Source: Acidobacteriota bacterium (GTDB taxonomy: Bacteria > Acidobacteriota > Thermoanaerobaculia > Multivoradales > Multivoraceae). Taken from it: a DNA stretch of 64,000 nucleotides. Within the stretch, counting starts at the first letter, position 1, and every line of letters begins with the position of its first letter. The position numbers and the translations under genes were made by a program. The stretch covers positions 3,514 through 67,513 of the forward strand of contig JAJCXN010000003.1 in assembly GCA_029263415.1 (NCBI GenBank), read 5' to 3'. Positions 28,801 to 63,430 of the stretch are shown here, piece after piece. The notes below the pieces were generated by a model that saw nothing but the letters and a program-made list of their open reading frames with translations, was not told the origin of the DNA and ran no database searches.

Positions 28801-30351
28801 GGCGGAGCGACTGGTAATGGCAATGGAGTGGGCGATATTGATCAACTACTCAACCTGCCAGTGAACAGTTCGGTCACCTACAACGCACTGTGCGATATCG
28901 ACCCATCGGCTTTGGGTACGCTCACCAATACTGCGGTGGTGACGTCATCAGTGGCTGACCTGGTTGGCCTCAACGATGTTGCGACCGACGGCGACACCGA
29001 GCTCACTCCACGAGGCAATCTGTCAGTGATGCTCGCAGATTCGGCCGATCCGATCGCAGCAGGGCTGTCGTTCTCCTACTACGTGACGGTAAGCAACAAA
29101 GGACCGTCCACTGCGCGTGGCGTCATGGCTACCCTTGACCTCGCTGATGCGTTGACTGTGACTGCTACCACTGGTTGCGTCAACGACCCGCTCGGATCAC
29201 CGGCTTGCGAATTGAGTGAGCTGCTGCCGAGCGAATCAGTGGAGGTGGTGGTCGAGGTTGCGGTTGAGCCGGGGACTGAAGGCCCGATGACGAGCACCGC
29301 TAGTGTGACTACCAGCACAAACGAAACAGACCTCAGCAACAACTCATCGAGCGAAGACACCCTCGCCGACGCCACCGCTCCAGCGGTGACTCTGGTGGCT
29401 CACGTCAATGATTTGGGCAGCGTCGAAATCAGCGAGTGTTTGTTTACTAGCCAGTCCGTGTATGAGCTAGAGGTCACATTCAGTGAAGAGATGTGGGATC
29501 CCGATTCGAACGTGGAGCCGGGTGACGTCACCAATCCACTCAACTACCGACTGGTGGCGAGCGGCCCTGATGGCGACTTCTCAAGCGCAACGTGTGATGG
29601 GCCACTTGACGACGATGTCTTGCTCGCGATCGAGAGTGTGAACTACGACAGCGCGAACTCCACTGCTACGATCCATCTCGATCCACCAATTGCGCTCGGC
29701 GACTCGCTGTATCGCCTAAAGGTCTGCAGTACTCATCGAGACCTCGGCGGCAATCCGCTCGAAACGGACTCGGATAGCGCATTCCAGCGTCTCTTTCGAG
29801 TTGAGCGCACGACGATGCTTCGGAACGGTTCATTCGATTGTACGCTTGACGAGTGGGAAGCCACCAGCCTGCTGCCGGAGGAGATCGTGCACAGTTCAGA
29901 AGACGTCGACGGGTCAACAGTTTCTGGGTCGGCTCGCGTGGTGAATCTGTCTGGCAATGCCGACTTTGCGCTAGCGCAGTGTGTCGACACGATCGGCAAC
30001 ATCGAACAGACGATTCGGCAACAGACACGTGTCTCGTTGCCGTCGCCGTCGGTCTTGACATTGAGTAGATCGTGCGAGTTCTTCTCCGAAACTGCTTGTA
30101 CGGGCATCAGCCTAGTCAGCGATTTCTCGTTGACGTTCTTGGAAGATACCGCGGGGCTGTGGGAACCCATGCAAGGGATTCTGGCGGCCCCGGCAGAGGC
30201 TGACTCCTTGCGGTGCACGTACGACATTCGATCTCCAAGTGGAGCACCCTTCGAGGTGTTCATTGACAGTTCCAATCTGACGACGACCCCGCTCTTTGCC
30301 GATGGGTTTGAGTCCGGGAATACCGCGGCTTGGTCAGGGGGTGTGTTGTGA
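22855..30351 (+). CDS. Giant (2498 aa) secreted surface/adhesin-like protein with HYR (hyalin-repeat) domains, DUF11 'conserved repeat' domains and Ig/cadherin-like modules. Carries the C-terminal F.DGFE.G.T..W tag.
   Basis: Signal peptide MATATSFYTKVQGTLALLLVTCQVASAQ. HYR signatures (TDNCDQAP...AAEDASGN, DQTAPAITCPADITV...TATDATG). DUF11 blocks (LTYTINVSNAGPNPDFAVSVADSFP...TLTNTAQV). D-rich calcium-binding-like DGDDDGIAD. Ends ...LFADGFESGNTAAWSGGVL. Confidence 0.85.
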   Translation: MATATSFYTKVQGTLALLLVTCQVASAQLSASTPVALGSNSSTKESERSRANEVALANYNGFERDQLEGMARELLSEQDLAQIATLSDDLTQDLLNRGLTTNEAVGACALTGNIIFTWGASNLTSFGAIGIVKAFFSGGLLTNKLASIHKYLIAVVAGSTIMTACPPFLVPGDFSTYSRQEKLDWALSRGFAATKADDLLLSVDEPTNPGSCQRTVQMDLLVDPEYSGEVNRFEVTDPGTLPPLPGIALIEPFGTFPSPAGDLNSGFLQPGLFSAISFGLRLFASSTPPPQVIDTSDSLSLFPGGLTDNLAWAMDIMPDLSPFFEDPDRLSWYTNPFESWQPPVTVLDLPGDAVGMQLEVGSSEIRFQGRGENVTLEDLLGLGGEDAFFETLGDVFGLDGPVDLGFNLNPYTEFFNSLTYEQEVTVTEGFAPEFVVLTTEVVPSISPNPIPIVQSLVYEALFPTGVDRGLIQPYETAGGLTITDNCDQAPRLIDNVPPHVPLGISYHSVAAEDASGNRSSDYWVKIEVIDTIPPDLPPTDAVTVEVPAGSTAPLGPYICTDYLCQINDPVPLFPPPFFDLASLAPQYGCTVSNTIGADVPCEAASVPIGNASTAVPPSVIRWTATDAAGNSSSIDQLVAFREVGSNQRPAATAASYTIAANQPTTIPLAGTDGDLDPLDFLLTMPPVFGDLEISAEPTFQTRFSLNGTLQRLTGVVQYRVSVNAITRYLVADTANRRLIEVDGNGALTNMLFLGQVQPHAIASYRRPSVVEQISNSVFSNQSAIADSLVIADVSTNKLHTLVWDSTLGYVPSTGIPIPSAFGNTDPVMSIGFDIADTPGGSFGDQLLIVRQGDGVASTESFNGNFGDGFALTPDSAWNPSGGSAWTIQAEKYAIGPDCDDTAGGYYQVVHEFAHGSIGAGDRIFRRRNHSPSSLTRIDFPSLSLDAAVTGMFVECTGSNSVNLVLADNEGQRLQRWRQTFNNAPSLSNTINIGGRFTSITQLIADQDGTFYAMDDRRLMHFDVFGRLLGLIFTRPDDDDVNGNIARLESPSGSNWVDLARFGDDFYLLNPGDEHNSDTIQRFRFNDGFADFDLMGSAGLSSADGGQALAAEDNGLLGLGSHALKYYPNGDLTNPDLLGDWDDGCDGDFCNVTEFAQIINANTNEPFVDVAGYDGTVLLSDGQRVHALTLAGAYRGWIGSCSAGSRCDVGTGMTTEFCTDCTESGPSIGDQLEVNPSKGYLYVGNGNDQVLLFALDDNGSLRTEISPDGDPNNLLTFLEAGDFTSVNAFAALGDHLYVAEGSPLKRVHFFEVDAFGNVELDQATVTYTPDPGYLGSDQIGFNVDDGLDLGQPAVVSLVVVDDQTAPAITCPADITVELTQAGGAKPLNTETGDFGSRQLADFIEAGIASDNVTLPAVTLTVDVAGSALPAVFPLGTTTVRFTATDATGLDTRCTADVSVVDTVPPQLILDSQLRVVEATGPLTSVDLVAPAVIEVGGGVVISNDAPASFPLGDTVVRWQAIDLSGNVGFADLLVQIVDTTPPDIDPLPATVIAAVNGHSNTLQYSQPTAHDLVSGSVEVACSPGDETIEQPALPYSVYCRAFDASENESSSVVQVEIRQLDGDDDGIADVIDSVPAGAARLGQPMFSDVGLGGVTHGDLAGDTTGLAMLDALQESWGVRASVALASTGEVAACANELNISELTPTIEDGETVPGVVDFSCSPAALRLINGSAAARFILPNTLFVDSQVETGHELSLQGFVATASAENPAPLSLVVENYPDPVLLQPGQSIDLSSVAIPLSSLAITNTDDLAVAVPGLGLTYTINVSNAGPNPDFAVSVADSFPTALACSWTSVADGGATGNSNSSGLLNDSLNMPVGSSVVYTAVCAIDSSATGTLTNTAQVTPSGNDPSLADNVAIDDNTELTPQADAAVSVGDGTTMATPGETTLGYTIIATNLGPSADPNLHLTDVFPNSLDCAWTSLAIGGATGNGNGVGDIDQLLNLPVNSSVTYNALCDIDPSALGTLTNTAVVTSSVADLVGLNDVATDGDTELTPRGNLSVMLADSADPIAAGLSFSYYVTVSNKGPSTARGVMATLDLADALTVTATTGCVNDPLGSPACELSELLPSESVEVVVEVAVEPGTEGPMTSTASVTTSTNETDLSNNSSSEDTLADATAPAVTLVAHVNDLGSVEISECLFTSQSVYELEVTFSEEMWDPDSNVEPGDVTNPLNYRLVASGPDGDFSSATCDGPLDDDVLLAIESVNYDSANSTATIHLDPPIALGDSLYRLKVCSTHRDLGGNPLETDSDSAFQRLFRVERTTMLRNGSFDCTLDEWEATSLLPEEIVHSSEDVDGSTVSGSARVVNLSGNADFALAQCVDTIGNIEQTIRQQTRVSLPSPSVLTLSRSCEFFSETACTGISLVSDFSLTFLEDTAGLWEPMQGILAAPAEADSLRCTYDIRSPSGAPFEVFIDSSNLTTTPLFADGFESGNTAAWSGGVL

Positions 30352-31256
30352 AGAGTCAACCGCGTTTCCGTTGCGCTGTCACGCGGTACGCCGGGGGCGA
30401 AGATCCTGCTGCCCAGGATCTTGCTCCGCTAGAAGCTGAATCGCCGGAGACTGGTCTCCGAGAGAGTGGTGCGCGTTGTCTTGGCCCGTTGCTTCTATGG
30501 ATTTTGGCCCTCCTCGGCACCTCAAGTCTCCTCGGAGCAACCGAGCCCTTCGATTGGTCTGTGAGTGATCGTGCGGGTTCGGGAGACGGACTTGTTGACC
30601 TGAACTTGGAACCTCCCATTCAGTTTGTTTTGGATGACGGCGTGCCGGAGGCGGACTTCGGCGTTGGCGGCACTACGGCTCGTCAGTTTCTCTGGTTGAA
30701 CCAGTTCGAAAGTCCGGGCGGTCTCTTTCAGTTGGAGTCAGTTTGCGTAGCGTTTCCGATCAACTCGAACCTGCCGGCGGGCAGTCCGATTGAACTTGTT
30801 GTGTACTTCGACACGGACGACGATCCAACGAACGGCGCCACGTTGCTTGGGACCTATCCGCGTGAGATTGGCGTTTTGGCTCCTGAAACGTGCGCCATGT
30901 TCGAGTTGGATCGCCCCTTGCTGATGCACGACGGCACAGCAATCCTGATCGGCGTGATCAATCGATTTGTCACCTCTGGAGTCAGCAGCCCGATTGCAGT
31001 CGCAGTGTTAGATACCACGCTCAGCCAGGGTAGGAGTTGGATCGCCATTTGGCAAGACGATCCGCCACCAGAGCCTGACCTGCAACCCGACTTGTATTTT
31101 GATCGGATCGACACCTTGATCCCAGGCAACTGGGTGATCCGGGGTTTCGGTCGGCGGCCAATCACCGTGATTCCGACGCTCGGGATGAAGTTTCTGATCG
31201 GGTTCGGGGCCCTTCTCAGCTTTGCCGCGATAGGTCAGATGAGGCGCCTCGGCTAG
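30348..31256 (+). CDS. Secreted protein with IPTL-CTERM sorting signal. Probable GTG start overlaps the stop of the giant gene (GTGA).
   Basis: C-terminus ...ITVIPTLGMKFLIGFGALLSFAAIGQMRRLG has an IPTL motif plus a hydrophobic helix plus a basic tail. Internal signal-like segment LGPLLLWILALLGTSSLLGA. Start uncertain (TTG 30330 or GTG 30348). Confidence 0.6.
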   Translation: MKSQPRFRCAVTRYAGGEDPAAQDLAPLEAESPETGLRESGARCLGPLLLWILALLGTSSLLGATEPFDWSVSDRAGSGDGLVDLNLEPPIQFVLDDGVPEADFGVGGTTARQFLWLNQFESPGGLFQLESVCVAFPINSNLPAGSPIELVVYFDTDDDPTNGATLLGTYPREIGVLAPETCAMFELDRPLLMHDGTAILIGVINRFVTSGVSSPIAVAVLDTTLSQGRSWIAIWQDDPPPEPDLQPDLYFDRIDTLIPGNWVIRGFGRRPITVIPTLGMKFLIGFGALLSFAAIGQMRRLG

Positions 31257-33356: not shown

Positions 33357-35471
33357 TCAGAAACTGCCTTCGAACGTGATCGTGTAGATCGTTCCAAAGG
33401 ACCGGACGCGCTCCTCCTGAAACCTGACAATGCCCGCCATTCGATCCTCGAACGCGGTTCGATAGAACTCATTGCGCCGGTCGAGCACGTTCGCAACACT
33501 GGCTCTCACGGTCAGTCCCAGGATGTCCTTGTGTTCGAGGAAGACGGTGGCGAACGCGAAGCTCTCGACGCTGCGGTTGATGGAGTTCAGCCGAAAGTCA
33601 GGCGCCTCTTCCTCATACCTGAGGCCAAAACCCGCGGCCCAGTCACTGTTCGTAAAGTCCTGCCGAAAGTCAGTGTTCAGATCGAACGTCGTGGTACCCG
33701 ACACTTTGCGCCGCACGCCAAGCAGCGGGTCGATCACCTCGGAGTCGCCAAACCCCATCTGAATGTCGAAGCGCCCGCCGCGCCATTTCAAAGGGTCCGT
33801 GAGCAGCGTCAAGTCGGCGGAGAGACCGTAGCGTTCAGCCGAGTCGATATTGCCGGGAGCCTGGCCACCGCCCTCGATGGGAATCTGATCGACGATGTCC
33901 GTAACGTCTTCAGCGAAGGCACTCAGCGTTAAAGAGCCAAAGCCGCCGAGGCTCTGGTTTGCCTCGGCCTCGAGCAGCCAGCTCTGCGGCGGCACAAGGT
34001 TGACGTTGCTGACATCGACCTCGCCTTCGGTCAGGTTCACAGAGGAGACGAAGTCCGAGAAGCCGAGCTGCCCCACCACACGTTCTAGCTTGCTCGAAAC
34101 ATCGAGCTGGTCGCTCACCTGCCAGTCGATTGAAAAGAACCCCTTGGGCCTGACGAAATCTCGCGTCAGACCGCCCCCGCCGGTTTGGCGGATCGTCGAA
34201 GTCTCAACGCCCGCGGAGGCCTGGATCTGGAGCCGGGGGCTCAACGAACGGCCGTAGCTCAAAGTGGTCTCGGCCCGATCTTCCTCAACGCGCGAGGATG
34301 AACCGGGGAACTCCACGGGCCGCAGGATCCCTAAGTCGTCGCGCTCGGCCAGCTCGGACTCGATGTCCAGAACGTTGCGCGCGCCCTCGAGGGAGAGCTG
34401 CCAGTCGCCACCGAGTGCTTGCAAGGTGTACTCGGCACGCAGGATGCTCTCGAACTCGTCTACCTCGCGTCTAAACTCCTCGCCACCTTCGGGTCGCTCG
34501 TCGTCGAACTCGAACTGCGTCGTCTCCAGCGACGGCCCGCCTTCCGAACGATGCAACGCAATGAGCTTCAGCTGGCCCGCGCCAAGGCCGAACTCGTAGT
34601 CAGCACCCAACTCGTATTCGAGCTCTTCTTCGCGCTCGTCGAGGAAACGCACCCGGTTTCCGTCGGCAACACTGGTCTGACGCGACACCTCCCGTCGCTT
34701 CGCGTCTTCGAACTGCACGGCACCCGTGAGGTTGAAGACCCGACCATCCGTGGTCTCGAACGCGTAGGAACCTGAAAGGCCAGGCCGGTCAGTTTCTCGG
34801 TTTAGACGTTCTTCCCTCATGATCAACACGTTGCCCGCTGCATCGAACACGACCTCCGGCCCCTCGTCGTGTCGAAACTCCTGGTCGCTCTCGAAGCCGA
34901 GCGTCCACTCGCTCTGAGCGTCGCCCCCAGAGAGCGAAATCTCGCCGTTGCCCCAACGGAAGGGAGTGCCTCTTGAGCGCCACTGGGGGCTATAGGAGAA
35001 CTGGCCGGTGATCTTTCCAGTGCTCTTGGTCACGACATTGAGCACCTGGCCGGAAAGGCCACCGATTTCCAGGCTCGCTCCGTCGACGATCTCGAGCTTG
35101 ACCACTTCACCAACCGGGATCCGGCCCAGCGCGTCGACCGGCCCATTGGACTTGCCCGAGAGACGGCGGCCGTTGATCAGAACGTTGGTGTCGGCCTGCC
35201 CGAGACCGCGATCCGAACCGCCCTCACGAACTGAGAAACCAGGGATTTGCTGCACCATGTCGAGAGCAGTCCGCGGCGCGAACCGCTCGAAGTCACTCAC
35301 TGTGAACGTGCGGCGCACCGTGCTTTGCTCAAGGTCGTCTTCTGGGGCGCGTGTAGACGGCCCCTTCGCGCCGCTAGCCACGACCAGGTCGGCACCGAAG
35401 ATCAGCATGCTCAGAATGGGTATCAAGCGCGCAAGGAAAGCGAGCGGGCCGCGAATATGAGGTGGGTTCAT
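33357..35471 (-). CDS. TonB-dependent outer-membrane receptor.
   Basis: Signal peptide. Plug-domain motifs (…DFERFAPRTALDMVQQIPGFSVREGG…VLINGRRL). About 700 aa. C-terminal aromatic terminus ...TITFEGSF typical of TBDR beta-barrels. Confidence 0.85.
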   Translation of the reverse strand: MNPPHIRGPLAFLARLIPILSMLIFGADLVVASGAKGPSTRAPEDDLEQSTVRRTFTVSDFERFAPRTALDMVQQIPGFSVREGGSDRGLGQADTNVLINGRRLSGKSNGPVDALGRIPVGEVVKLEIVDGASLEIGGLSGQVLNVVTKSTGKITGQFSYSPQWRSRGTPFRWGNGEISLSGGDAQSEWTLGFESDQEFRHDEGPEVVFDAAGNVLIMREERLNRETDRPGLSGSYAFETTDGRVFNLTGAVQFEDAKRREVSRQTSVADGNRVRFLDEREEELEYELGADYEFGLGAGQLKLIALHRSEGGPSLETTQFEFDDERPEGGEEFRREVDEFESILRAEYTLQALGGDWQLSLEGARNVLDIESELAERDDLGILRPVEFPGSSSRVEEDRAETTLSYGRSLSPRLQIQASAGVETSTIRQTGGGGLTRDFVRPKGFFSIDWQVSDQLDVSSKLERVVGQLGFSDFVSSVNLTEGEVDVSNVNLVPPQSWLLEAEANQSLGGFGSLTLSAFAEDVTDIVDQIPIEGGGQAPGNIDSAERYGLSADLTLLTDPLKWRGGRFDIQMGFGDSEVIDPLLGVRRKVSGTTTFDLNTDFRQDFTNSDWAAGFGLRYEEEAPDFRLNSINRSVESFAFATVFLEHKDILGLTVRASVANVLDRRNEFYRTAFEDRMAGIVRFQEERVRSFGTIYTITFEGSF

Positions 35472-49039: not shown

Positions 49040-49882
49040 TCAGGGACTCGTTGACGACCACTGAGTGGTGTCGCCACTCTCGAATCCGTCAACGAACAAG
49101 ATTTCCCTAATGTCCCAGAAGACAACTATCTCCGCGAGATCGTAGCCCGCGATCTCGACCGGCTCGCCTTCGACCTGGAACTGCAGGAGAACGGTCCCAG
49201 AAAGGGTGACACCGTCGGATAGATCGGCGCTCAACGCCGGATTACTGAAGATGAGGGATCCAACCACGTCATAGGCCTCCACCCCAACTCCCACCACGCT
49301 AAACGGGGCGTCTGGCTGGATCTGATTGCTGGCATCGAACGCCCCTACATCGAGCCTCCACGTGATCAGTGTTGCTCCTGCGTTGCCAACTTGCCCTGCC
49401 GCGACCCACGGTTCCCTACCCAAGGCGCTGTTAAGGGCGGTCACCCCTACTGAAACCCGGTCGATCCCTGGGCCGCCGTGATCGACCGAATACGTTTCAA
49501 GAACGCTGAACGTGCCACCTGCGGAGCCTCGAAAGTTCGCACCGATGTTGGTGGCTGTGCCATCAAAGGTCAGCGTCGTTTCCGTCGGTGAAGTCATGGC
49601 ATAAGCCCCCGTCGGCACCGCATCGTCTTGGACCACCGGAGCCAGCGAGTAGGTGTCCCCTGAAGGGTCAGCGACGCGCGAGGGCTGCTCGCTAGCGTCA
49701 AGTGGAGCCAGGATTGCGCCAATCGTCGACCGCTCCTTCCAGGCGCTGCTGCCGCCATACCAAGCTGCAGTGAGTTCGCGGCTAGCAGAGGGCGGATCAG
49801 GGACCAGAGTCAGGGATTGTGCGGTGATCGGTAAGGCAGCAGTGAAGGTCAGCAGTCCAGCCAAAATCAGTTTTCGTCTCAT
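49040..49882 (-). CDS. Secreted hypothetical protein carrying the C-terminal F.DGFE.G.T..W tag.
   Basis: ATG at 49882 after AGGAG. Signal peptide MRRKLILAGLLTFTAALPITAQ. Ends ...EILFVDGFESGDTTQWSSTSP. Confidence 0.6.
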   Translation of the reverse strand: MRRKLILAGLLTFTAALPITAQSLTLVPDPPSASRELTAAWYGGSSAWKERSTIGAILAPLDASEQPSRVADPSGDTYSLAPVVQDDAVPTGAYAMTSPTETTLTFDGTATNIGANFRGSAGGTFSVLETYSVDHGGPGIDRVSVGVTALNSALGREPWVAAGQVGNAGATLITWRLDVGAFDASNQIQPDAPFSVVGVGVEAYDVVGSLIFSNPALSADLSDGVTLSGTVLLQFQVEGEPVEIAGYDLAEIVVFWDIREILFVDGFESGDTTQWSSTSP

Positions 49883-50385: not shown

Positions 50386-51504
50386 ATGACCCACTCGCGA
50401 CTCGCCCTGCTTCTTGCACCTCGAACCTCATGGCGCGCGCTGGTCCTCTGCATCTGCGTGTGTGCCCTGGTGGCGGCTGCGCCCGCGACCGCCTCGCTCG
50501 CAACCAACGGAGACTTTTCGACGAATCTCTCGTCATGGTCACAGACCGGTTCTTGGCAGCACAATGACTCGGACGGTCTGTTCGACTCCACCTCCGCTGA
50601 GACCAGCGGCGGGGGTACAGCGACTCTCACGCAATGCGTGGAGTTCAGTCCTATCGTCCCGGGCGGCTCCATCGCGGTGCTCGCCAACGCCAAGACTCCG
50701 TTCCTGGATACTCCTGTGTCGGCGGGGCTCCAACTCTTCTCCTCGGACGATTGTACGACCGGCCCGCTGGTCAGCAGCCTTGACCGACGAGAGACCATTG
50801 GTGCGGTCGACGCGTGGCGATTCCTGTACACCACCGTCGCTTCGCCTGCGGGCACCTCCAGTGCTCTCATCACCCTGACCGCCGAGCACGATGCACGAGG
50901 CATGGCCACCACGAGATTCGATCTCATCTCCTTGTACCATGACCTGGTGAGAGGCGGGAACTTCAACAGCGCAGCGTTCTTGGACCCCTTCTACCAGCCC
51001 TCCGGAACGTGGGGTTGGGTCGAGAACGAAGGCATCAGTCGACCCGATGCGAACTCCCCGCCACTCGGCGCCGCGCAGGGGACCATCGCTGCCAACGGTT
51101 CGATCAAGCTCGGCCAGTGCTTGACCAGAGCCACTGGACCGCTCAACTCGTTCGGATACTCCCTCCTTCGCATCAATGCCGGAACCAACTGGACCCCAGG
51201 GTTCGACGGCAGCTACGACTATCGGATCACCTTTCGGTTCCACGATGCAGCAGACTGCTTGGGGAATCAGATCGACGTGGTCTCACCTTGGGTGGAACCC
51301 ATGGCCGACGACGAATGGTGGCACTTCTTCAATGTGATCCCGATTCCAACGGACGCGGTCAGTTGGCGGATGGAGGTGGAATTAGAAGCCGGCCAGGGGG
51401 TCGAGGGCGAGACCTTCATGGTGGACGATCTTGTCTTCGCCGTACCCAACTTCGGGATCTTCTTCGATGGCTTTGAGAATGGCAGCACGTCAGCCTGGAA
51501 CTGA
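50386..51504 (+). CDS. Secreted hypothetical protein carrying the C-terminal F.DGFE.G.T..W tag.
   Basis: ATG at 50386. Signal peptide MTHSRLALLLAPRTSWRALVLCICVCALVAAAPATAS. Ends ...GIFFDGFENGSTSAWN. Confidence 0.6.
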   Translation: MTHSRLALLLAPRTSWRALVLCICVCALVAAAPATASLATNGDFSTNLSSWSQTGSWQHNDSDGLFDSTSAETSGGGTATLTQCVEFSPIVPGGSIAVLANAKTPFLDTPVSAGLQLFSSDDCTTGPLVSSLDRRETIGAVDAWRFLYTTVASPAGTSSALITLTAEHDARGMATTRFDLISLYHDLVRGGNFNSAAFLDPFYQPSGTWGWVENEGISRPDANSPPLGAAQGTIAANGSIKLGQCLTRATGPLNSFGYSLLRINAGTNWTPGFDGSYDYRITFRFHDAADCLGNQIDVVSPWVEPMADDEWWHFFNVIPIPTDAVSWRMEVELEAGQGVEGETFMVDDLVFAVPNFGIFFDGFENGSTSAWN

Positions 51505-53051: not shown

Positions 53052-53774
53052 TCAGTTCTGCCAACGCGGCCGGTTTGCGATGGTCTCAAGCAGTTCGAAG
53101 TAGTAATCCCGGGTGATGAAGGCCTTCTCGGGCTGCAGAGTTGCTGGAAACATGAGAGATGTCAGCGACTCTTCCTCGCCATTGCCCTCGGTCGACGACT
53201 TGTTCCAACCACTCGCGCCGTCGCGCGCCAGACGGAAGCCCTCAATGCCATCGTGCTTGAGAGTCGACCCGAGATTGCGGAGCTGTCTTAGAGACTGCAA
53301 AGCTCTCCCCCGGGGATCGTAGCCTCCGGTCGCATCAGTATCTGGTTTGTGATTCAGTCCCAAACTGCGGCCGATCTCGTGCACGGCACCCATGGTGGAC
53401 CAACCAATCGTCACCGGATCGTCCGCCACCCCCATGGCCACGATCTCGGGGAGCCCAGCCGCAGGATCGCTGACGAGATGTCTCCAGCCGCCCGCCGAGC
53501 ACCTCTGCGGGTGCGAAGTAGAGAACGACATCGGCGCTCGAGCCCGAAGAGTAGAGGCTACGAAGGGCCGACGGAATGCAGCCATCGACCGCTGGATCTG
53601 GGCAGTGGCCAGCGAGATGAGTCTCCCAGTCCATCGAACCCCGGGCGGCGAACTGGCCCGGTCGGAAGCGCACGTCGGCGAAGGGGAACAGTTGCCAGGC
53701 GTAGGTCTCGGCCGCAGCGGCAATACGCTGAGCGACGTCGATGAGGTGGCGATGACCGCCACCGGCCCAATCAC
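53052..53774 (-). CDS. Metzincin-like domain encoded in an alternative frame overlapping the 3' end of the PKD gene, HExxRxxGxxH (second His replaced by Arg). Probable frameshifted continuation of 53335-56148.
   Basis: ...EIVAMGVADDPVTIGWSTMGAVHEIGRSLGLNHKPD... The listed ORF overlaps 53335-53774 of the PKD ORF in another frame. The PKD ORF ends shortly after the overlap. Confidence 0.4.
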   Translation of the reverse strand: MIGPVAVIATSSTSLSVLPLRPRPTPGNCSPSPTCASDRASSPPGVRWTGRLISLATAQIQRSMAAFRRPFVASTLRARAPMSFSTSHPQRCSAGGWRHLVSDPAAGLPEIVAMGVADDPVTIGWSTMGAVHEIGRSLGLNHKPDTDATGGYDPRGRALQSLRQLRNLGSTLKHDGIEGFRLARDGASGWNKSSTEGNGEEESLTSLMFPATLQPEKAFITRDYYFELLETIANRPRWQN

Positions 53775-56148
53775 CCAACGGGGCCATGTACCAGTCGACG
53801 GTCAGTGTTGGAGAGCGGTCCCAGAGTTCTTCTCGGCAGTTAACCCGGGGTCCCCGCCGCCACTCGCCTTGCTTGCGGACCTTCAATTCGAGCCTGAGGT
53901 AGCCTGGCTCCCCTTCCCTCGGAGTCCAACCGAAGAGGTTGGCGGTGTGTTCGGCTTGAGCCTTGTTGACGTTGTGTTCCCCCCAAAGATCAGGACGCGA
54001 AAAGGTCTGTAGAGTCGAGAGCTCCGGAGTGGTGCGTATGGAGACGACTCGGGAATCAAACTGCCGTCGCTGGGCTAGCGGTGCGACCTCGGGGTGCTCT
54101 CTCCAATTGGCATAGACCCGGGCGACGGTTGGCTTGTCGAGAATCAGCTTGGGGTTTCTGACCGTCTGGAAGAGTTCGCAGGAGAGGTTGTTGCCGAGGG
54201 CGAGATCGAAGTCGAGCGCGGTCCAGAACTCCCATTCGTACCAACCACTGCCATCGGAATCCTCCAGCGGCACAGAGTCCCGTGACCTGACTCCCTCTTC
54301 ACCGGCACGGACCTTCGCCGTATAGCGAACCCCTTCGAGCCACGGTTCGTCGGGGTGGAACCAAACGGTGGTCGGTCCGCGCACGAGCCGTCCCGGGACG
54401 GTGACCAACTCGCCGCCTCCCCGCGGCGGATAACCCACCTTAAACGTATCGAGATTCAGCGTGTCGGGATCGTACTCGTCGTCGAAGGTAATGCCCACCC
54501 TTGCTCGTTGCTGGATCTGTTGATCAACTGGTGGGAAGACAGACTTCACCCCAAACGTGGCGTCGCTACACGCATACATCACCAACCCGTCACGCGTGGC
54601 GGTCTCGAGGTTCAAGACGAAATCACCCGTCAGCCGGATGGTGCCAGCGGACGGAGTCGACGGATCCACGAGAGTCAGGTCGACCTTAGCCATCATGCGG
54701 TCGTGCGGCAGAATTGTTACATCGAGGGAGCCGCCCCCTTCGAAACCGAGCCGCTTCTCCACCCCGAAGGGTGATAGGGCAACTGGCGCACCCGCATTCG
54801 GTTGTTCCTCACGATCCCCGACTTGCACAAATCCGGCACCGGAAGCTCTTAGCCCTTCGTTGATCGCATCCGCCCATTCCTCGTCGCTGCGCTCGCCGGA
54901 TCCTTGTCCCTCCCCGTCAGCGCCCGAACCGGCCGACAACTGCCGTATTCGAGGTAGGGCGCGCTGCAAGGCACGGCTACCGAGACCCATCGATGCCTGG
55001 CCTGCCTGATCGTACGCGCGGAGGTATTCCTCCGCGTTTGGTTGGGCGCTTACCTGTGCATATCGGCTTTGCAGCTGGTAGCGAGCCCCTTCCTGTGGAA
55101 GGTATCCAATGTCAGCCATGAGTTGCAGCAGCCCAAGCTTGCGCGGATCCCAGGCCGTCATCACAAAGCGGCAGCTATTGCCTTTTCCGGGGCCCAGGAA
55201 AAGGCCTACAAAGGGGCGGATCTCGCCCCGGAAATCGGACTCTAGCGCTCCGCTGATGGTCCCCTGGAAGCCGCTCACAGCGGTCTCTGCCGCAACCTCG
55301 TCTTCCACCACGATCGGGTCTGGCCGCGACGGCGCGTCACCACGACCATGCACCACAACCTGGATCGTTTCAGTGCCCTCGGTTCGGTGCTCGTCGCGAA
55401 CTGTCAACTGCACAGGGTAGGTACCTGGGAGCAAGAACCGATGCCGAGCCTCGGGTTCTTCGGTGGTCGCGGTAGTACCGTCCCCGAAATCCCAGTGATA
55501 GCTCAGCTCCTCGTATTGCGCGTCGTAAACGTAAGCAGTGAATTCGAACGAGGCATCGGTATCTGCTAGTCGAAGTGCGGCTAGTTCCCAAATCTGCGGC
55601 GGCTGATTGCGCACCAAGATTTCGTGAGTAGCGCTCGCCACAATTGTCCCAGACACCGTCGACTTCATGTCGACTTGGATCGTAAAGGCTCCGTCCTGGT
55701 GGTAGCGATGTTGAGCGACGGTCCGTTCGCCGGTCGAGAAAATCTCTCCAGTGTCGCCGAAACTCCACAGAAACTCGACCTCGTCTTCCCATGTCGTCGG
55801 CATGACCCCACTCGGCACTTGCTCACCGTTGAAGTCGTACGTCTCCCAAGCCGCCTTGGGGTTGTAACCGGCAGGCCCCGTACGAAGTCGCAGAGCTCCG
55901 TAGACGACGCTCCAGGTAGACAATGTCTCCTCGTAGACCTCGCGGGAACCGAGTATTTCGAGACTCGGTTCCGGTGAGACACGCTGACCTAGGATTGGCA
56001 TCCCGGTGGCGATAGCGAGGATAGCCACCACCAGCCCGACCCGGAAGCCGCGAACACGCGAGGTAGTGCTGCGAGCCGAAGCTGGGCACCCCCGGACACT
56101 GATGTAGGGGACGGACATTGTGCTCCTTACCGGGTAGCAGGCTGCCAA
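53335..56148 (-). CDS. Large secreted PKD-domain protein (937 aa as listed). Likely continues into a metzincin-like C-terminal domain after a frameshift (see 53052-53774).
   Basis: Signal/TM segment near the N-terminus. PKD signature YHWDFGDGTTATTEEPEARHRF..GTYPVQLTVRDE and a further PKD-like block. Confidence 0.7.
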   Translation of the reverse strand: MAACYPVRSTMSVPYISVRGCPASARSTTSRVRGFRVGLVVAILAIATGMPILGQRVSPEPSLEILGSREVYEETLSTWSVVYGALRLRTGPAGYNPKAAWETYDFNGEQVPSGVMPTTWEDEVEFLWSFGDTGEIFSTGERTVAQHRYHQDGAFTIQVDMKSTVSGTIVASATHEILVRNQPPQIWELAALRLADTDASFEFTAYVYDAQYEELSYHWDFGDGTTATTEEPEARHRFLLPGTYPVQLTVRDEHRTEGTETIQVVVHGRGDAPSRPDPIVVEDEVAAETAVSGFQGTISGALESDFRGEIRPFVGLFLGPGKGNSCRFVMTAWDPRKLGLLQLMADIGYLPQEGARYQLQSRYAQVSAQPNAEEYLRAYDQAGQASMGLGSRALQRALPRIRQLSAGSGADGEGQGSGERSDEEWADAINEGLRASGAGFVQVGDREEQPNAGAPVALSPFGVEKRLGFEGGGSLDVTILPHDRMMAKVDLTLVDPSTPSAGTIRLTGDFVLNLETATRDGLVMYACSDATFGVKSVFPPVDQQIQQRARVGITFDDEYDPDTLNLDTFKVGYPPRGGGELVTVPGRLVRGPTTVWFHPDEPWLEGVRYTAKVRAGEEGVRSRDSVPLEDSDGSGWYEWEFWTALDFDLALGNNLSCELFQTVRNPKLILDKPTVARVYANWREHPEVAPLAQRRQFDSRVVSIRTTPELSTLQTFSRPDLWGEHNVNKAQAEHTANLFGWTPREGEPGYLRLELKVRKQGEWRRGPRVNCREELWDRSPTLTVDWYMAPLGDWAGGGHRHLIDVAQRIAAAAETYAWQLFPFADVRFRPGQFAARGSMDWETHLAGHCPDPAVDGCIPSALRSLYSSGSSADVVLYFAPAEVLGGRLETSRQRSCGWAPRDRGHGGGGRSGDDWLVHHGCRARDRPQFGTESQTRY

Positions 56149-56447: not shown

Positions 56448-58988
56448 ATGACCGCGACCCACAAGCACCGAACGACTCAACATCAGCGAACCACAACCTG
56501 GATATCCCCGCTCCGACTTCATCGCCGAGTGTGTCTTCTATCGCTCTGTGCCGCTGCCTCATGCGTCTTTGCTTGCGCACCGGGCGATACACCCACGCGC
56601 GCGGCCAAGGTCGTCCTGATCGGGATCGACGGATTCGATCCCGACATCGCGACGGCAATGATGGACGAGGGGCACCTGCCCACATTCGCCGCCTTGCGTA
56701 CAAACGGGACCTTTGGACGGCTGCGTTCACGAGAGCCACTCCTGTCGCCGCTCGTTTGGACCTCAATCGCGACCGGTCGCACCCCTCAAGATCACGGCAT
56801 TCTTGACTTCGTCGAGGGCACAGACAGTGGCGACCTTATCCCGATCACCAGCAGGCGACGTCAGGTACCAGCGCTGTGGAACATCTCAACCGCGGCGGGT
56901 CTCGTGACCGGCTTCCTGGGTTGGTACGCCACATTCCCAGCCGAGCAAGTGCGCGGGTTTCAGATCTCGGATCGAATCGGCTTTCATCAGGTGCGCTCAG
57001 CCACCGCGACAACGGGTGTGACCTTCCCTGAACCGCTTGCCGCCAAGCTCTCCAGCACCGTCGGGCAGGCGACGATCGACATCGAAACCACTCGCGATCT
57101 GTTCGTCGCAGCCAACGCAACCCTCAGCGCCGACGGCGCAGAGCGCATCGACAAACTGGCGCGGATCCATGCCACAGCCGAACTCTTTCGTCGCGCCACG
57201 CCAGAGCTGCTCGACACGTTCGATCCTGACCTATTCGGAATCTACTTCGAACTGGTGGATGCTTGTAGCCATCTGTTCATGGAAAACGCCGGCCCCAAGC
57301 GTCCTAGCACCAGCACACAAGACTCCAACGCCTTCGCCGGTACAGTCGCTCGGTGCTACCAGGTTCAAGACCAGATCCTGGGCTCGATACTAGCGTCCCT
57401 CGACAGCGACACCACCGTCATGGTCGTCTCAGATCATGGGTTCAAGAGTGGAGACGCAAGGCCCCTGACTTCCGGCCGTGCAGACACTGGAGTTGCCGGG
57501 CTTTGGCATCGCTTGGATGGGGTCTTGTTCATGCGTGGGCCAGGAATCAAACAAGGAGTGTCGATTACCGGCGCTGGCATCCTCGACATCGCACCGACAG
57601 TGCTGGCTCTTCTGGGCCTACCAGCATCCCCGACGATGACCGGTGCCGTGCTCCTCGATGCGTTTGACCAAGCGCCGAGCACCGACCGCCATGTCGACTA
57701 TCAGCGCATTCCTGCTCGGTCCCTGCCACGTAGCGAGGTTTCCAGCCACCTGGCAGGCGCCAACCAAGACGAAGCCGGGGCCACCGCCGACCAGGAGTGG
57801 ATTGCGAAACTGCAAGCGCTCGGCTACCTGAACGGTGGAGGTAATCCCGTCATAGGCCGAGACGGCCGAACGGCATCGTCTTACGTCAATGAAGGCACCA
57901 GCCTAGCCGTGGATGGCGAGGTCGACGCTGCCCTACGCGCCTACTCCACAGCTGCTTCCATAGATCCTGCAAATCCAATTGCCGCCGCCTTCGCAAGCCG
58001 TCTGTTGATCGATCGTGGTGACCTGGAGCAAGCGCAGAAGCTCCTCAGAAAGGCGGCACAAGAGAACCCTGAGAGCATCTTTGTCCATCTGGAGCTGGCG
58101 CGGTACCACATCGCTGTGGGGCGTTGGGGGCTGGCCGCTAACGAACTGGTCTTGGCCGAGTCGCTAGACTCGAACCTGGCTCAACTCCACCTCTCAAAAG
58201 CACGGTTGGCCAACGTCCAGGGCCTGAGCGCCCAGGCCCTCGTGGCGCTCGACGAGGCAGCACGGCTCTCCGATGCAGGCCCCATGCTTGCTGAAATCCT
58301 ATTGCTGCGCGCCAGGGTGGCCGCAGAAGCCGGTGAGTTAGACATGGCCTTTGCCAGTCTCGACCGTGCGCGAGCGCTGAAGGTTTCCCCAGAAGCACTG
58401 GCTCCGGCCGAGGCTGACATCGCCCTGAGCCAGGGCAACTTCGAGGAGGCCCTAAGGCTCCTGAGCTTCGCTCGTGAGAACTCCCCGGGCGACGTGACCG
58501 TGGCCCGAAAGTTGGCCCAGGCTCTGGCGGCTACCGGCAGTCCGACTGGAGCCCAAGAGCTTCTTTCCGGACTTCTCAGCTCATCCGTCAACGCGCTGTC
58601 GCCCTTGGATCGATCTTGGGTCACCGGCGATCTAGCTTTGATCTTCCAGGCGCGCGGTCAGGACTCGAGAGTCGTGAAGCTGCTCGAGTCAGCTCTCGAA
58701 CGGCGCGATATCGCGGTGCTCAACGAGGCGCCCCGGGCCGCCAATCTGCTGGCTCTACTGGGTGCGGCGCACGGCCGACTAGGTAACCTGCACGCCGCTC
58801 GGGATGCATACGAGCAGTCCGTTGCCCTAGAAGAACACCCGCTAGCGCTCAAGACGCTCGCTCTGCTGGTCAATCGGCTCGACGGTGACCGCGATCGTGC
58901 CGTAGCGCTACTCAAACGATCCCTACAACTGCTCCCGGGCCAACGTGATGTGGAGCAGCTACTTGCTGACCTAGGGCAGAGTCACTGA
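56448..58988 (+). CDS. Alkaline-phosphatase-superfamily (nucleotide pyrophosphatase/phosphodiesterase-like) lipoprotein with C-terminal TPR repeats.
   Basis: Lipobox-like ...AAASCVFAC. VVLIGIDGFDPD...FGRLRSREPLLSPLVWTSIATGRTPQDHGILDF matches the type I phosphodiesterase/AP-family metal-binding N-terminus. The C-terminal ~300 aa is Ala/Leu-rich TPR-like. Confidence 0.7.
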   Translation: MTATHKHRTTQHQRTTTWISPLRLHRRVCLLSLCAAASCVFACAPGDTPTRAAKVVLIGIDGFDPDIATAMMDEGHLPTFAALRTNGTFGRLRSREPLLSPLVWTSIATGRTPQDHGILDFVEGTDSGDLIPITSRRRQVPALWNISTAAGLVTGFLGWYATFPAEQVRGFQISDRIGFHQVRSATATTGVTFPEPLAAKLSSTVGQATIDIETTRDLFVAANATLSADGAERIDKLARIHATAELFRRATPELLDTFDPDLFGIYFELVDACSHLFMENAGPKRPSTSTQDSNAFAGTVARCYQVQDQILGSILASLDSDTTVMVVSDHGFKSGDARPLTSGRADTGVAGLWHRLDGVLFMRGPGIKQGVSITGAGILDIAPTVLALLGLPASPTMTGAVLLDAFDQAPSTDRHVDYQRIPARSLPRSEVSSHLAGANQDEAGATADQEWIAKLQALGYLNGGGNPVIGRDGRTASSYVNEGTSLAVDGEVDAALRAYSTAASIDPANPIAAAFASRLLIDRGDLEQAQKLLRKAAQENPESIFVHLELARYHIAVGRWGLAANELVLAESLDSNLAQLHLSKARLANVQGLSAQALVALDEAARLSDAGPMLAEILLLRARVAAEAGELDMAFASLDRARALKVSPEALAPAEADIALSQGNFEEALRLLSFARENSPGDVTVARKLAQALAATGSPTGAQELLSGLLSSSVNALSPLDRSWVTGDLALIFQARGQDSRVVKLLESALERRDIAVLNEAPRAANLLALLGAAHGRLGNLHAARDAYEQSVALEEHPLALKTLALLVNRLDGDRDRAVALLKRSLQLLPGQRDVEQLLADLGQSH

Positions 58989-59095: not shown

Positions 59096-62095
59096 TTGAA
59101 GAAAACCCTCATCACCACCGTTGCCTTAATATTCGCAGCATCCGCTGCCTGGGTTTTGCTTCAACAGCCAACCGATGAAGCGAGCAGAGCATTCGCCAAA
59201 GGCCAACCGATCAAGGCCGCCAAACACAAACAAAAGTTGCGGATGGCCGCCGCAGCGACCGGCGTTGATCTCTCAGAAGAAGGTGATCGGTCCTCGCTCG
59301 GCTACGCAAGCTGGTTCCGTGACCAACGCGTCTATCCTGCAGACAGCTACCCACGGGACGCGATGAAGAATGCCTTCGCTCACATCGCGGCCAACAACCT
59401 CGGCCGAGCAATTGCAAACGACGAAACCAGAACCTCGCGAGGGCTACCAAGAGCGGGTGGATCAACGACCTTTCCTTGGGAATTCATTGGGCCTTCGACC
59501 TTGCCCGATGGGCAAACCGACACTGATGGTTCAATCGGCTACCCGCTGTCGAACGTTAGCGGTAGAACTCAAGCGATCGCCGTGCACCCAGGGAACTCGG
59601 ACATTGTCTACGCTGGCGGCGCCCAAGGTGGGGTCTGGAAGACCACCAATGCCACCGCCGCAACTCCAGCGTGGACACCGCTGACCGACCAGGAGGCAAC
59701 GCTCGCCACCGGCTCCATCGCCATCGACCCCTCAAACCCCGACATCATCTACGTTGGTACAGGGGAACCGGCAGGCTCTTGCGATTCTTACTATGGTCAG
59801 GGCATTCTTCGCTCAACCGACGCAGGCGACACTTGGTCGTTACTGGCACAGCCAACGTTCCAGTTCAAGAGCATCTCCAAGATCTTGGTGGACCCGGCGT
59901 CAGCAGGCAGCACCACGACCACAACCGTCTTCGCGTCGGTTCGCGTAGGCCTGTTTAGTTCCGGCACATCACAGTGTGCCGCCGCATCCGGCGCGGTCAC
60001 AGGGGGGGTATACCGTTCGACCGATAGCGGCCAAACCTGGACGCTACTCAACGTGCCAACAGGTGTCGGCGGAACTCAGCAAGTCCATGACATGAGCTTT
60101 GGTGCCACCGGAGCAACGCTCTATGCTGCAGTCCGTGGCTTCGGCGCTCAGGATACTGCCGGAATCTGGAAGAGCACCAATGCCTTGAGCGCTACCCCAA
60201 CATTCACCCGGATGGCGAACGGCTACGCTCAGACTTCAAACGCGACACCCTCTAGCCCGGAGACACGACGCAGCAGAATGGCTGTTTGCGAGGGCACTCC
60301 AGACACCATCTACACCGCGGTCGAGGCTCTGGGAAGTACGCTTTGGGGCATGTTCAAGACCACGGATGGCGGTGCCAATTGGTCGCATATGGATGGTAGT
60401 GACAGTGGTACCGCCAACTACAGCTCAGGCAGTACCACGGTTAGTCGCCTGAGCGGCCCAAACTTCATCGCAAGCATGATCGGACAGCGGATCATTCTCG
60501 ACGGGCGGATGTCGCGCACCGTTGCCTCCATCACCAATATCAACACTCTCGAATTGACCAGCGGAACCGACGCTGCAGGCAGTGCAGATTCTTGGTCGGT
60601 CGCCAGCTACCCTAGCTTTTGTGACGGACAGTGCTTCTACAACCTGACGGCTGGCTGCGACCCAAGCGACTCCGACGTGCTCTACATCGGTGGCAACCCC
60701 AGAACCTTTGCGCAAGATCTTGGTGGCGTTGGCGTAGCGAATCGCCTCAGTGCCTGGCGATCGGATGACGGCGGCGATAGCTGGACTGGCATCTCGCACG
60801 GTGACAACGTCACCGGCGGCATCCATACCGATGTGCAATCAGTTGCCTTCGACAGTTCAACCAAACCAAGCAGGGTGTTCGTTGGCACCGACGGCGGCGT
60901 TTGGAGTTCTGACAACGAAGGTGGTTCTTGGAAGTCGATGAACACGGATCTGGCGATCACTCAGTTCCAAGGCGTGGCATTGCATCCGAGCGACACAGGC
61001 ATCGTGCTCGGTGGAACCCAAGACAACGGCACCAACATTCTCAGGACTGATCTCGAACCAGCTCCCGCGTTCTTTCACACGGACTTTGGTGACGGTGGCC
61101 AGGCCATTATTGACCAGGGTGACGGAGATCGGATGTTCCACACCTATTTCAACCAGACGAACGCTTTTCAAGGGCCAGCGCGAAGTACAACTGGAGGCGA
61201 CGATGGACCGGGCGGCTGGACCTTCGTCGGTGGCTACTTTGGTTATGGAGCTGCCTATCAGAACGGTTTCATCGCCGGTGATCCGGTCCTGTTTTACGCA
61301 CCGCTAGCGCAGTTCGAAGGTACAGATCCGAACCCGGTCTACTTTGGCACCAACAAGGTGTTCCGCTCGCCGGATCCCGCACCCGCGGTACCAGCGCCTC
61401 CGCTGCCCGGGAGCTGGACGGCAGTCAGCCCCAATATCAACTCTGGAGATCCAACCGAACGCGTCAGCTGGATCGAGGTCTTTCCTGCGCTGATCTCTGG
61501 AGATGAGGTGGTCTACGCTGGTGGTGCATTCGGGAGCCTGATGGTGGCGCCGGACATTGACGGCACCACCAGTGGGTGCCCCGGTGCTTGCACAAGTACG
61601 TGGAACCAGATCGCGGATGCGGCGGTGACGCCGAGTCGATTCGTGACCGACATCGAAGTCTCACGAGGCGACGCAACAGCCAATACAGCGTACGTGACCT
61701 TCTCGGGCTTCAACGCCAGTACGCCGGCAACGCCCGGGCATGTATTCAAGACCGTCGACGGCCTTGCAGGAACGCCCACCTGGATGGACATCTCCGGGAA
61801 CCTGCCAGACATTCCCGCTAATGCGATTGCGGTTGATCACACGACCAGCCCAGAGAAGCTATACGTTGGTACCGATATCGGTGTCTTCAGCAGCTCGAAT
61901 GGGGGCAGCACTTGGATCTATGAGAACCAGGGGCATCCAGCGGCTGCAGTTTTCGGCTTGGATCGCAGTTCGCTTACAGGTCAGCTGGTTTCATCAACCC
62001 ACGGTCGGGGAATGTTCGAGGCGAACCTCGACATCATATTCACCGACGGTTTCGAAAGTGGCAACACCTCAGTGTGGTCGAACGCCGTACCCTAG
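59096..62095 (+). CDS. Secreted BNR/Asp-box repeat protein (sialidase/glycosidase-like beta-propeller), 999 aa, carrying the C-terminal F.DGFE.G.T..W tag.
   Basis: TTG start. Signal peptide MKKTLITTVALIFAASAAWVLL. At least six S/T-x-D-x-G-x-T/S-W Asp-box repeats (RSTDAGDTWS, RSTDSGQTWT, KTTDGGANWS, RSDDGGDSWT, SSDNEGGSWK, SSSNGGSTWI). Ends ...IIFTDGFESGNTSVWSNAVP. Confidence 0.75.
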   Translation: MKKTLITTVALIFAASAAWVLLQQPTDEASRAFAKGQPIKAAKHKQKLRMAAAATGVDLSEEGDRSSLGYASWFRDQRVYPADSYPRDAMKNAFAHIAANNLGRAIANDETRTSRGLPRAGGSTTFPWEFIGPSTLPDGQTDTDGSIGYPLSNVSGRTQAIAVHPGNSDIVYAGGAQGGVWKTTNATAATPAWTPLTDQEATLATGSIAIDPSNPDIIYVGTGEPAGSCDSYYGQGILRSTDAGDTWSLLAQPTFQFKSISKILVDPASAGSTTTTTVFASVRVGLFSSGTSQCAAASGAVTGGVYRSTDSGQTWTLLNVPTGVGGTQQVHDMSFGATGATLYAAVRGFGAQDTAGIWKSTNALSATPTFTRMANGYAQTSNATPSSPETRRSRMAVCEGTPDTIYTAVEALGSTLWGMFKTTDGGANWSHMDGSDSGTANYSSGSTTVSRLSGPNFIASMIGQRIILDGRMSRTVASITNINTLELTSGTDAAGSADSWSVASYPSFCDGQCFYNLTAGCDPSDSDVLYIGGNPRTFAQDLGGVGVANRLSAWRSDDGGDSWTGISHGDNVTGGIHTDVQSVAFDSSTKPSRVFVGTDGGVWSSDNEGGSWKSMNTDLAITQFQGVALHPSDTGIVLGGTQDNGTNILRTDLEPAPAFFHTDFGDGGQAIIDQGDGDRMFHTYFNQTNAFQGPARSTTGGDDGPGGWTFVGGYFGYGAAYQNGFIAGDPVLFYAPLAQFEGTDPNPVYFGTNKVFRSPDPAPAVPAPPLPGSWTAVSPNINSGDPTERVSWIEVFPALISGDEVVYAGGAFGSLMVAPDIDGTTSGCPGACTSTWNQIADAAVTPSRFVTDIEVSRGDATANTAYVTFSGFNASTPATPGHVFKTVDGLAGTPTWMDISGNLPDIPANAIAVDHTTSPEKLYVGTDIGVFSSSNGGSTWIYENQGHPAAAVFGLDRSSLTGQLVSSTHGRGMFEANLDIIFTDGFESGNTSVWSNAVP

Positions 62096-62950: not shown

Positions 62951-63430
62951 ATGACGCTTTCACAGACAATCATCAAACCCGCCGTAGGGGTTGTATCCCT
63001 CTCCTTCCTTCTGGTGTTTGCGGCGGGCGCTGCGCATTCACAGACCTGCAGTGTGCCCGGAACCCACCTGTCGATCGAAGCCGCAGTCGACGACCTCTCT
63101 TGCCTCGAGATCGACCTGGAGGCCGAGACCTACCTTGAGTCCGTCGTCTTAGAGCGAACGTTGACCTTGCGGGGCCCGGCAGGTGAAGGAGCACAAACCC
63201 TGATTGAGGGCACTGTTGACGTCCGCACTGAAGGAACCGTGGTCACTCTGCGAGACCTAACGATCCAGAACAGCTGCACGCCTGCCGCATTTACTGTTTC
63301 TAGCGGCGCGCTGGTCGACGCACTGGATGTAGACATCGTGTCTGACGAAACAAGAGGCTGCCCGCAGCTCTTGTTCGCGGACGGCTTCGAGACCGGAGAT
63401 ACAACTGGATGGTCGCTGACTAACCCGTGA
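62951..63430 (+). CDS. Small secreted protein (~160 aa) carrying the C-terminal F.DGFE.G.T..W tag.
   Basis: ATG at 62951. Signal peptide MTLSQTIIKPAVGVVSLSFLLVFAAGAAHSQ. Ends ...QLLFADGFETGDTTGWSLTNP. Confidence 0.55.
   Translation: MTLSQTIIKPAVGVVSLSFLLVFAAGAAHSQTCSVPGTHLSIEAAVDDLSCLEIDLEAETYLESVVLERTLTLRGPAGEGAQTLIEGTVDVRTEGTVVTLRDLTIQNSCTPAAFTVSSGALVDALDVDIVSDETRGCPQLLFADGFETGDTTGWSLTNP

Follow-up and report, generated by a model that had tools for sequence, protein, structure and literature searches.

Why five exported proteins of one Acidobacteriota genome should end alike, when their bodies are otherwise unrelated, is the question raised by a stretch of 64,000 nucleotides from contig JAJCXN010000003.1 (positions 3,514 to 67,513 of the forward strand; assembly GCA_029263415.1), the whole of which is referred to below as the window. 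A preliminary description of this DNA, made without database searches, had proposed the shared end as a candidate sorting or secretion tag. The tail is a widespread C-terminal tag that is undescribed in Pfam, NCBIfam or the searched literature; its origin is best explained by a strand of jelly-roll domains, and it may serve as a docking label on the proteins that carry it.

The tag in the window

A six-frame search of the 64-kb window with the regular expression [DN]GFE.[GN] returned five matches and no more, each followed by a stop codon after 12-16 codons and each closing a long open reading frame (ORF). Base shuffling of the window (200 shuffles) gave a mean of 0.03 matches, with no match at the C-terminus of an ORF of at least 100 amino acids. 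The five tails are 15-19 residues long and agree without exception in eight columns (F, D, G, F, E, G, T and W), and the genes that carry them, here called A to E, make up 5 of the about 30 genes in the window. The tag of A lies at 30292..30348 on the forward strand (LFADGFESGNTAAWSGGVL, then the stop at 30349-30351), that of B at 49043..49099 on the reverse strand (LFVDGFESGDTTQWSSTSP, stop 49040-49042), that of D at 62036..62092 on the forward strand (IFTDGFESGNTSVWSNAVP, stop 62093-62095) and that of E at 63371..63427 on the forward strand (LFADGFETGDTTGWSLTNP, stop 63428-63430).

The motif put forward in the preliminary description for all five proteins holds as a common core, but carrier C has a short variant of it at 51457..51501 on the forward strand (IFFDGFENGSTSAWN, stop 51502-51504), which has G-S-T and closes with W-N directly before the stop, without the S-x-T-V-P end. 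The only detected homolog of C (P0276, 48% identical) closes with the same short tail, ...IFADGFEGGSTSAWN; because both proteins lack S-x-T-V-P, the part after the Trp is dispensable in some lineages.

The bodies of the five carriers are mutually unrelated. Carrier A (22855-30351, forward strand) is a protein of 2498 amino acids with DUF11 and HYR domains by Pfam, and is identical to the database protein P0206, in which a profile built from the tails matched residues 2464-2497 of 2498. Carrier B (49040-49882, reverse strand; 280 amino acids) belongs to no known family. Carrier C (50386-51504, forward strand; 372 amino acids) is all-beta without a Pfam family, and two internal strand motifs of the carbohydrate-binding-module (CBM) jelly-roll type, 'NGDFS...W' and 'GGNFNS...W', can be read from its sequence; an AlphaFold2 (AF2) model was likewise all-beta, but of low confidence (predicted local distance difference test, pLDDT, 53, from a two-sequence alignment) and too poor to use. 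Carrier D (59096-62095, forward strand; 999 amino acids) consists of Sortilin/BNR-type beta-propellers, and carrier E (62951-63430, forward strand; 159 amino acids) has a short beta-helix-like body with a weak NosD-like match and no Pfam family. All five (5/5) have a signal peptide, read by eye as a hydrophobic N-terminal segment.

For Ser, the tag of A uses TCC where those of B and D use AGT, and other synonymous sites also vary among the five tags, so the tags are alike at the protein level and are not copies of a DNA repeat; both a DNA repeat and gene conversion were ruled out as their origin on these grounds. Readthrough or a frameshift into a downstream domain was also ruled out: the DNA beyond the five stops is unrelated, the ORFs there hold no continuation of a domain, and the ORF that follows A has a signal peptide of its own.

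Occurrence and consensus

Searching proteins by word index with the five tails yielded nine candidates only, which were the first sign of the motif elsewhere. A profile scan, as called for in the preliminary description, then revealed a far wider distribution, with 3,734 proteins (50%-identity clusters) matching the tail profile at E<=1e-3 among 1.84 billion cluster representatives. In nearly all single-copy matches the Asp stands exactly 16 residues from the C-terminus. At the DNA level, one genome per species was scanned with a degenerate pattern for F-x-DGFE-x-G-[DN]-T-x-x-W, whose information content, by the authors' estimate approximately 42 bits, gives an expectation of less than one chance match. 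At least 118 loci match this pattern; 103 of those listed are labelled Acidobacteriota and most are from Thermoanaerobaculia, including Ca. Multivoradales and Sulfomarinibacteraceae. In 112 of the 128 matches listed, the reading frame ends 13-23 codons past the Phe, and in 74 of these the distance is 18 codons exactly.

A logo of the 108 C-terminal tags among the matches listed gives the consensus [LIV]-F-x-D-G-F-E-[ST]-G-[DN]-T-S-A-W-S-x-T-V-P-stop. Several of its positions are not forced by the search pattern, namely L, I or V at -1 (100 of 108), S or T at +6, S-A before the Trp and S-x-T-V-P after it; the Asp is invariant, and one position alternates between D and N. Conservation falls to zero upstream of -1, where a stretch rich in Gly, Pro and Ser (-2 to -5) resembles a linker. 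Past the Trp there are 0-7 residues, mostly polar (S/A/T/V/P), and the last one is Pro, Gln or Gly, in agreement with the preliminary statement that neither a transmembrane (TM) helix nor a basic tail follows the motif. Some C-termini bear double tags in tandem, approximately 21 residues apart. The tag is under selection at the protein level.

No Pfam or NCBIfam model matched the tails alone at E<=10 or covered the tail in whole proteins, and full-text searches of the literature on the motif strings and on sorting signals of Thermoanaerobaculia and Acidobacteria found nothing relevant, which bears out the earlier impression that the tag is not a described family. The preliminary description had also named what would count against the tag, including a larger domain cut short and chance paralogy among five genes. 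A reading of this kind, which would put the likeness down to chance, to recent paralogy, to a repeat in the DNA or to a domain cut short by errors of assembly or ORF calling, has in its favour the small initial sample of five and nothing else. It is refuted, with next to no probability left to it, by the 0.03 matches expected against five found, the differing synonymous sites, the thousands of independent clusters and the real in-frame stops, whose distance stays the same across many genomes and assemblies; no ORF continues past the five tags of the window.

Carriers and modularity

Signal peptides are enriched among the carriers, with 65 of 80 complete tagged ORFs passing a crude test against 114 of 400 neighbouring ORFs at the loci listed. 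Of the 15 failures, six do have a signal peptide when inspected by eye; the others look mostly like over-extended ORF calls. The 71 complete tagged proteins contain 45 Pfam families, all of extracytoplasmic kinds, among them peptidases (S8 in seven proteins, M14, M28, M43 and C1), GH8, GH114, FG-GAP, BNR/sortilin, beta-helix, multihaem cytochrome c7-type, GSDH and PAD. The carriers are thus diverse exported enzymes and adhesins, and the concern that cytoplasmic proteins might bear the motif equally falls away, since the carriers are of exported types. In effect, the tag labels a degradative secretome of peptidases and glycosidases together with adhesins and cytochromes.

The family of carrier D demonstrates that the tag is an autonomous appended module. 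The body of these proteins always ends in ...HGRGMFEL, after which the nine closest homologs (P0007-P0015; 53-66% identical, one of them annotated as Thermoanaerobaculia) continue into the tag or a variant form, while most of the others simply end there. In a few, other C-terminal modules replace it: SLH (P0034, P0035), dockerin-like repeats read from the sequence (P0125), and FG-GAP. An AF2 model of D from an 86-sequence alignment reached a mean pLDDT of 84 over the whole chain and a predicted template modelling score of 0.85; the last strand of the body is at residues 973-976, whereas residues 980-999, which hold the tag, have a pLDDT of 46-47 and do not pack against the body.

Two further endings were observed within the same family. 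Half-tags close the homologs P0016, P0025, P0030 and P0080 (...LIFEDGFQ, ...LFADGFENPPP, ...LFKDGFEQP and ...VFSDGFEN, respectively), which reflect either gene calls that were cut short or a briefer tag of which [LIV]F-x-DGFE alone remains. Many homologs, in the range P0017-P0042 and elsewhere, have an unassigned C-terminal domain ending ...FILDVNGYF[KEQ], which recurs alongside extensions of the FG-GAP and PKD kinds and may deserve description as a further C-terminal module.

Origin of the tag

The top-scoring profile matches contain 2-6 internal copies of the motif, approximately 190-300 residues apart, and each internal copy opens a beta-rich unit of approximately 200 residues. Pfam matches to these units are weak but of one kind, with PF14099 (Polysacc_lyase) matching from position 1, CBM_4_9 from positions 2-3, and Laminin_G_3 also found, all of them ConA-like jelly rolls. 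A hidden Markov model (HMM) was built from 86 of the jelly-roll units, and every C-terminal tag of the loci and the window aligns to its positions 1-16/18 (1-17 for the tags of A, B and E, as for the other tags), so the tag is sequence-equivalent to jelly-roll strand beta1. The preliminary view that the tail is not a described family can therefore be kept in part: no curated model covers it, but it corresponds to the first ~16-18 residues of a jelly-roll domain type. Searches of the PDB by sequence, with the full unit and with the motif, returned zero relatives, hence no solved structure in which to place beta1.

The tag is nevertheless not merely a truncated domain, because it has a fixed stop in thousands of unrelated proteins, its own S-x-T-V-P end, and a characteristic substitution: 83 of 90 orphan tags have Thr where the full domains have a hydrophobic L, F or M (85 of 116). 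This switch to Thr points to a distinct selective regime for the orphan tags. On the evidence of these alignments, the best explanation is that the tag derives from the beta1 strand in ConA-like jelly-roll domains of the PF14099/CBM_4_9/LamG type and now persists as an 'orphan strand'.

Comparison with known sorting signals

Described short C-terminal sorting signals are tripartite, consisting of a signature motif, a transmembrane helix and an Arg cluster (10.1101/2023.06.07.544157). With such CTERM signals (LPXTG, PEP-, IPTL-, GlyGly- and MYXO-CTERM), the tag shares a short C-terminal motif on many unrelated bodies with signal peptides, and like them it is frequent wherever sampled and largely lineage-restricted. 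However, it has no TM segment after the motif (a scan for a hydrophobic 15-mer plus a basic tail found none on tagged proteins), its S-x-T-V-P end contains no basic residues and no Arg/Lys cluster, and no NCBIfam/TIGRFAM CTERM HMM matched, whether the search used whole proteins (E<=1) or the tails alone (E<=10). The tag thereby breaks with the architecture common to described short sorting signals, and its origin can be traced to a structural strand of the jelly-roll fold.

To strand beta1 of the ConA-like jelly rolls (PF14099, CBM_4_9, Laminin_G_3) it is alike in the motif [LIV]-F-x-D-G-F-E-S-G-D-x-S-x-W, and it differs from the full domain of approximately 190-220 residues in lacking the remaining ~180 residues, in having Thr for a buried Leu or Phe, and in its own S-x-T-V-P end and stop. 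Dockerin and SLH modules are similar as C-terminal additions to secreted hydrolases that are independent of the catalytic body and occasionally duplicated in tandem, and the SLH and dockerin-like modules of distant D homologs sit at the position of the tag; those modules have approximately 60-70 residues, whereas the tag has 19, is mostly single and matches neither family in Pfam (tails and the C-termini of the five carriers). The C-terminal domain (CTD) of the T9SS (type IX secretion system) likewise marks a large, hydrolase-rich, Sec-exported cargo set in a diderm phylum, but it is a folded beta-sandwich of 70-100 residues that is recognised by the T9SS and removed by PorU, while the tag is approximately 19 residues long and belongs to another phylum; neither TIGR04183 nor Por_Secre_tail (NCBIfam, Pfam) matched the tagged proteins or their tails. 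Unlike substrates of the type I secretion system (RTX), the carriers have N-terminal segments resembling signal peptides, and Pfam found no RTX families in them. Unlike the beta-signal of outer-membrane proteins, the tag ends in Pro, Gln or Gly and not in an aromatic residue, and its carriers are soluble-type enzymes and propellers.

Short C-terminal tags have led before to new envelope machineries, namely sortase, exosortase, rhombosortase, myxosortase and the T9SS. Protein clusters with the present tag number in the thousands at least, in a little-studied class, for the most part uncultured, that is common in sediments, soils and sponges, and an HMM for the tag would improve the annotation of these genomes, flag exported and surface proteins, and aid the finding of a partner by phylogenetic profiling.

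Possible function and alternatives

A possible explanation for these features, judged to have about an even chance of being correct, is that the ~19-residue, beta1-derived tag is an autonomous address or docking label on Sec-exported proteins of Thermoanaerobaculia. The N-terminal signal peptide would carry the protein over the inner membrane, after which the body would fold and leave the tag exposed on its short Gly/Pro/Ser linker. We infer that a component of the envelope would then bind the tag, most plausibly by beta-strand augmentation in the manner in which beta1 is held in the jelly roll, and that this binding would either retain the cargo at the cell surface or pass it towards the surface, the outcome being localisation or docking. 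If docking does proceed by strand complementation, the tag would also be of interest to biotechnology, as a minimal peptide tag that evolved in nature.

Several observations weigh against this account. The neighbourhoods of tagged genes were surveyed over approximately 950 kb, comprising the window and the 118 loci listed, and ORF clustering together with BLAST of the window proteins found no recurrent non-tagged gene family beside tagged genes beyond ones that appear abundant in these loci in general. An HMM of the unit without beta1, run over the same DNA for a receptor that lacks this strand, found three complete domains only. Approximately 20% of the tags among the matches listed end 1-3 residues after the Trp, so a reading that relies on a fixed free C-terminus is not required, and approximately 10% of the matches listed are internal rather than C-terminal: three start a full unit (L087, L092, L100), others lie between domains, and a few resemble lost stop codons. 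The taxonomic proportions of the tag, moreover, describe a sample of species genomes (at least 118 loci) rather than the whole collection. Recognition of a fixed free C-terminus by a PDZ-type domain was down-weighted, given the tags that stop 1-3 residues past the Trp and the tandem copies.

The survey gave little else by way of a partner. Families near tagged genes, such as Ser/Thr kinases, histidine kinases, extracytoplasmic function (ECF) sigma factors, sulfatases and CHAT proteins, are seemingly common throughout the loci; nothing recurs among the same-strand operon partners of tagged genes at the loci listed, and no sortase, exosortase, rhombosortase or myxosortase was seen in these neighbourhoods. 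The sorting or secretion function suggested in the preliminary description stands as a proposal, with neither a recurrent neighbouring gene nor a processing enzyme found in its support.

Part of that suggestion had leaned on a protein adjacent to A (30330-31256, forward strand), described as bearing an IPTL-CTERM tail and hence as evidence that the organism uses dedicated C-terminal sorting. The protein ends ...PITVIPTLGMKFLIGFGALLSFAAIGQMRRLG, in which IPTL, a hydrophobic helix and RR can be recognised by eye after a body of approximately 200 residues without a Pfam family, and this is the only TM-plus-basic C-terminus in the ~950 kb by the scan for a hydrophobic 15-mer and basic tail. The NCBIfam IPTL-CTERM model, however, matched neither the whole protein nor the tail alone at E<=1, so the argument for dedicated sorting rests on a tail that fails its own family HMM. 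The same protein was rejected as a receptor for the tag, with that failure, no similarity to the jelly-roll unit and no homolog near other tags.

Among other explanations for the tag, an unlikely one is that it has no addressing role and acts in cis as a structural or protective cap, a leftover beta1 whose task would be to stabilise the C-terminus, to bind Ca2+ or to protect the protein against periplasmic tail-specific proteases. Its derivation from a structural strand would suit such a role, as would the search for a partner that ended without a find, and in some carriers a jelly-roll or MAM-like domain stands right before the tag (InhA-like_MAM in 4 of 71; the body of the L010 carrier ends with a strand, ...DDVKIQ). 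Yet carriers end in folds as unrelated as propellers, beta-helices and peptidases, there is zero conservation upstream of the tag, the tag lies unpacked on the confidently modelled body of D, and most D homologs fold without it; a passive remnant, moreover, would not hold a fixed length and at least 13 constrained positions over thousands of clusters. Slightly less probable again, and doubtful, is a split jelly roll, a specific form of the docking account in which the orphan beta1 would complete, in trans, a jelly roll without beta1 on a surface-anchored or scaffold protein, a form of display resembling cohesin and dockerin. The tag and beta1 of the full domain conserve the same residues (F, D-G-F-E, G-D and W), which suggests a similar structural environment, the tandem double tags recall the duplicated segment of dockerin, and SLH and dockerin-like modules take the place of the tag in distant D homologs. 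Against this stand the lack of any unit without beta1 in the window or the 118 loci listed, the Thr that tags have for the core-facing Leu or Phe of beta1, which argues against an identical fit, and an adjacent anchored IPTL-like protein that has neither detectable similarity to the unit nor a homolog near other tags. Were the split jelly roll true, each cell would have dozens to hundreds of exported enzymes docked by way of their 19-residue tags on a ConA-like envelope receptor without beta1, giving a minimal surface display native to Thermoanaerobaculia that would be cohesin-dockerin-like, or SpyTag-like but non-covalent.

Two explanations involving covalent chemistry are improbable, the second even more so than the first. 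The tag could be a processing site for a soluble or lipid-anchored envelope peptidase or transpeptidase, following the logic of PorU or the glycosylphosphatidylinositol (GPI) transamidase without a TM segment; candidate enzymes are exported lipoprotein CHAT proteases, which would cut after the invariant Asp or at the Asp/Asn position. Both the invariance of that Asp and the position at which D and N alternate are in keeping with such a site. In the window, a CHAT (caspase-fold) protein at 40034-42880 (reverse strand) has a signal peptide and a lipobox-like Cys, as do all three CHAT neighbours of tagged genes elsewhere (L087:5224-7836, L112:1133-4096, L113:3993-7148), and from these features the lipobox CHAT proteins would be exported lipoprotein proteases. 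A CHAT neighbour is nonetheless present in only 3 of the 118 loci listed, and CHAT proteins seem common in general, so these neighbours amount to a lead and show no association: there are two in the window, the other of which (12779-15631, reverse strand) is without a signal peptide and apparently cytoplasmic. Tandem tags and internal copies of the tag type also suit a cleaved signal poorly. The remaining explanation, with very little probability, is a site of post-translational modification, such as an O-glycosylation sequon within D-T-S-A-W-S-x-T, for which the Leu-to-Thr switch specific to orphan tags and the S/T-rich second half of the tag may be cited. Also in its favour, Bacteroidota use an O-glycosylation motif, D-[ST]-[AILVMT]. 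The third residue in the tag, however, is mostly Ser, which does not fit this sequon; conservation is strongest at F, D-G-F-E, G and W rather than at Ser or Thr, and no association with glycosyltransferases was seen in the neighbourhoods of the loci listed.

Neighbouring genes

Directly 5' of D lies a gene for a protein of the phosphodiesterase/sulfatase superfamily with C-terminal TPRs (56448-58988, forward strand). This synteny is kept in two orthologous D loci from other assemblies (L120:7534-9894 and L121:7393-9831), each of which has one further tagged gene, and a homolog of the sulfatase/TPR protein (L029:2442-4430) lies close to a tagged gene whose resemblance is to A and C rather than to D. 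Just upstream of B and C, the gene at 46342-48303 (forward strand) encodes a protein of 653 amino acids with a signal peptide and no family, whose end, ...SLSLRIQLPF, resembles that of an outer-membrane beta-barrel. A TonB-receptor-like protein with a Plug domain is encoded at 33357-35471 (reverse strand) and has the C-terminus ...TFEGSF.

Right after E, an ORF at 63532-64000 (forward strand) runs off the window; it starts MKHLPTASH..., has a segment resembling a signal peptide and contains 'ELWRTDGT'/'ELWITDGT' repeats, as of a large exported repeat protein. At 53052-56148 (reverse strand), a tagless PKD-domain ORF (53335-56148) has an end that appears out of frame and overlaps an ORF in another frame (53052-53774) with the zinc-protease-like motif HEIGRSLGLNH. 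By its reading frames, this region resembles a single PKD-metalloprotease gene that a frameshift has broken in two, whether in a pseudogene or through an assembly error.

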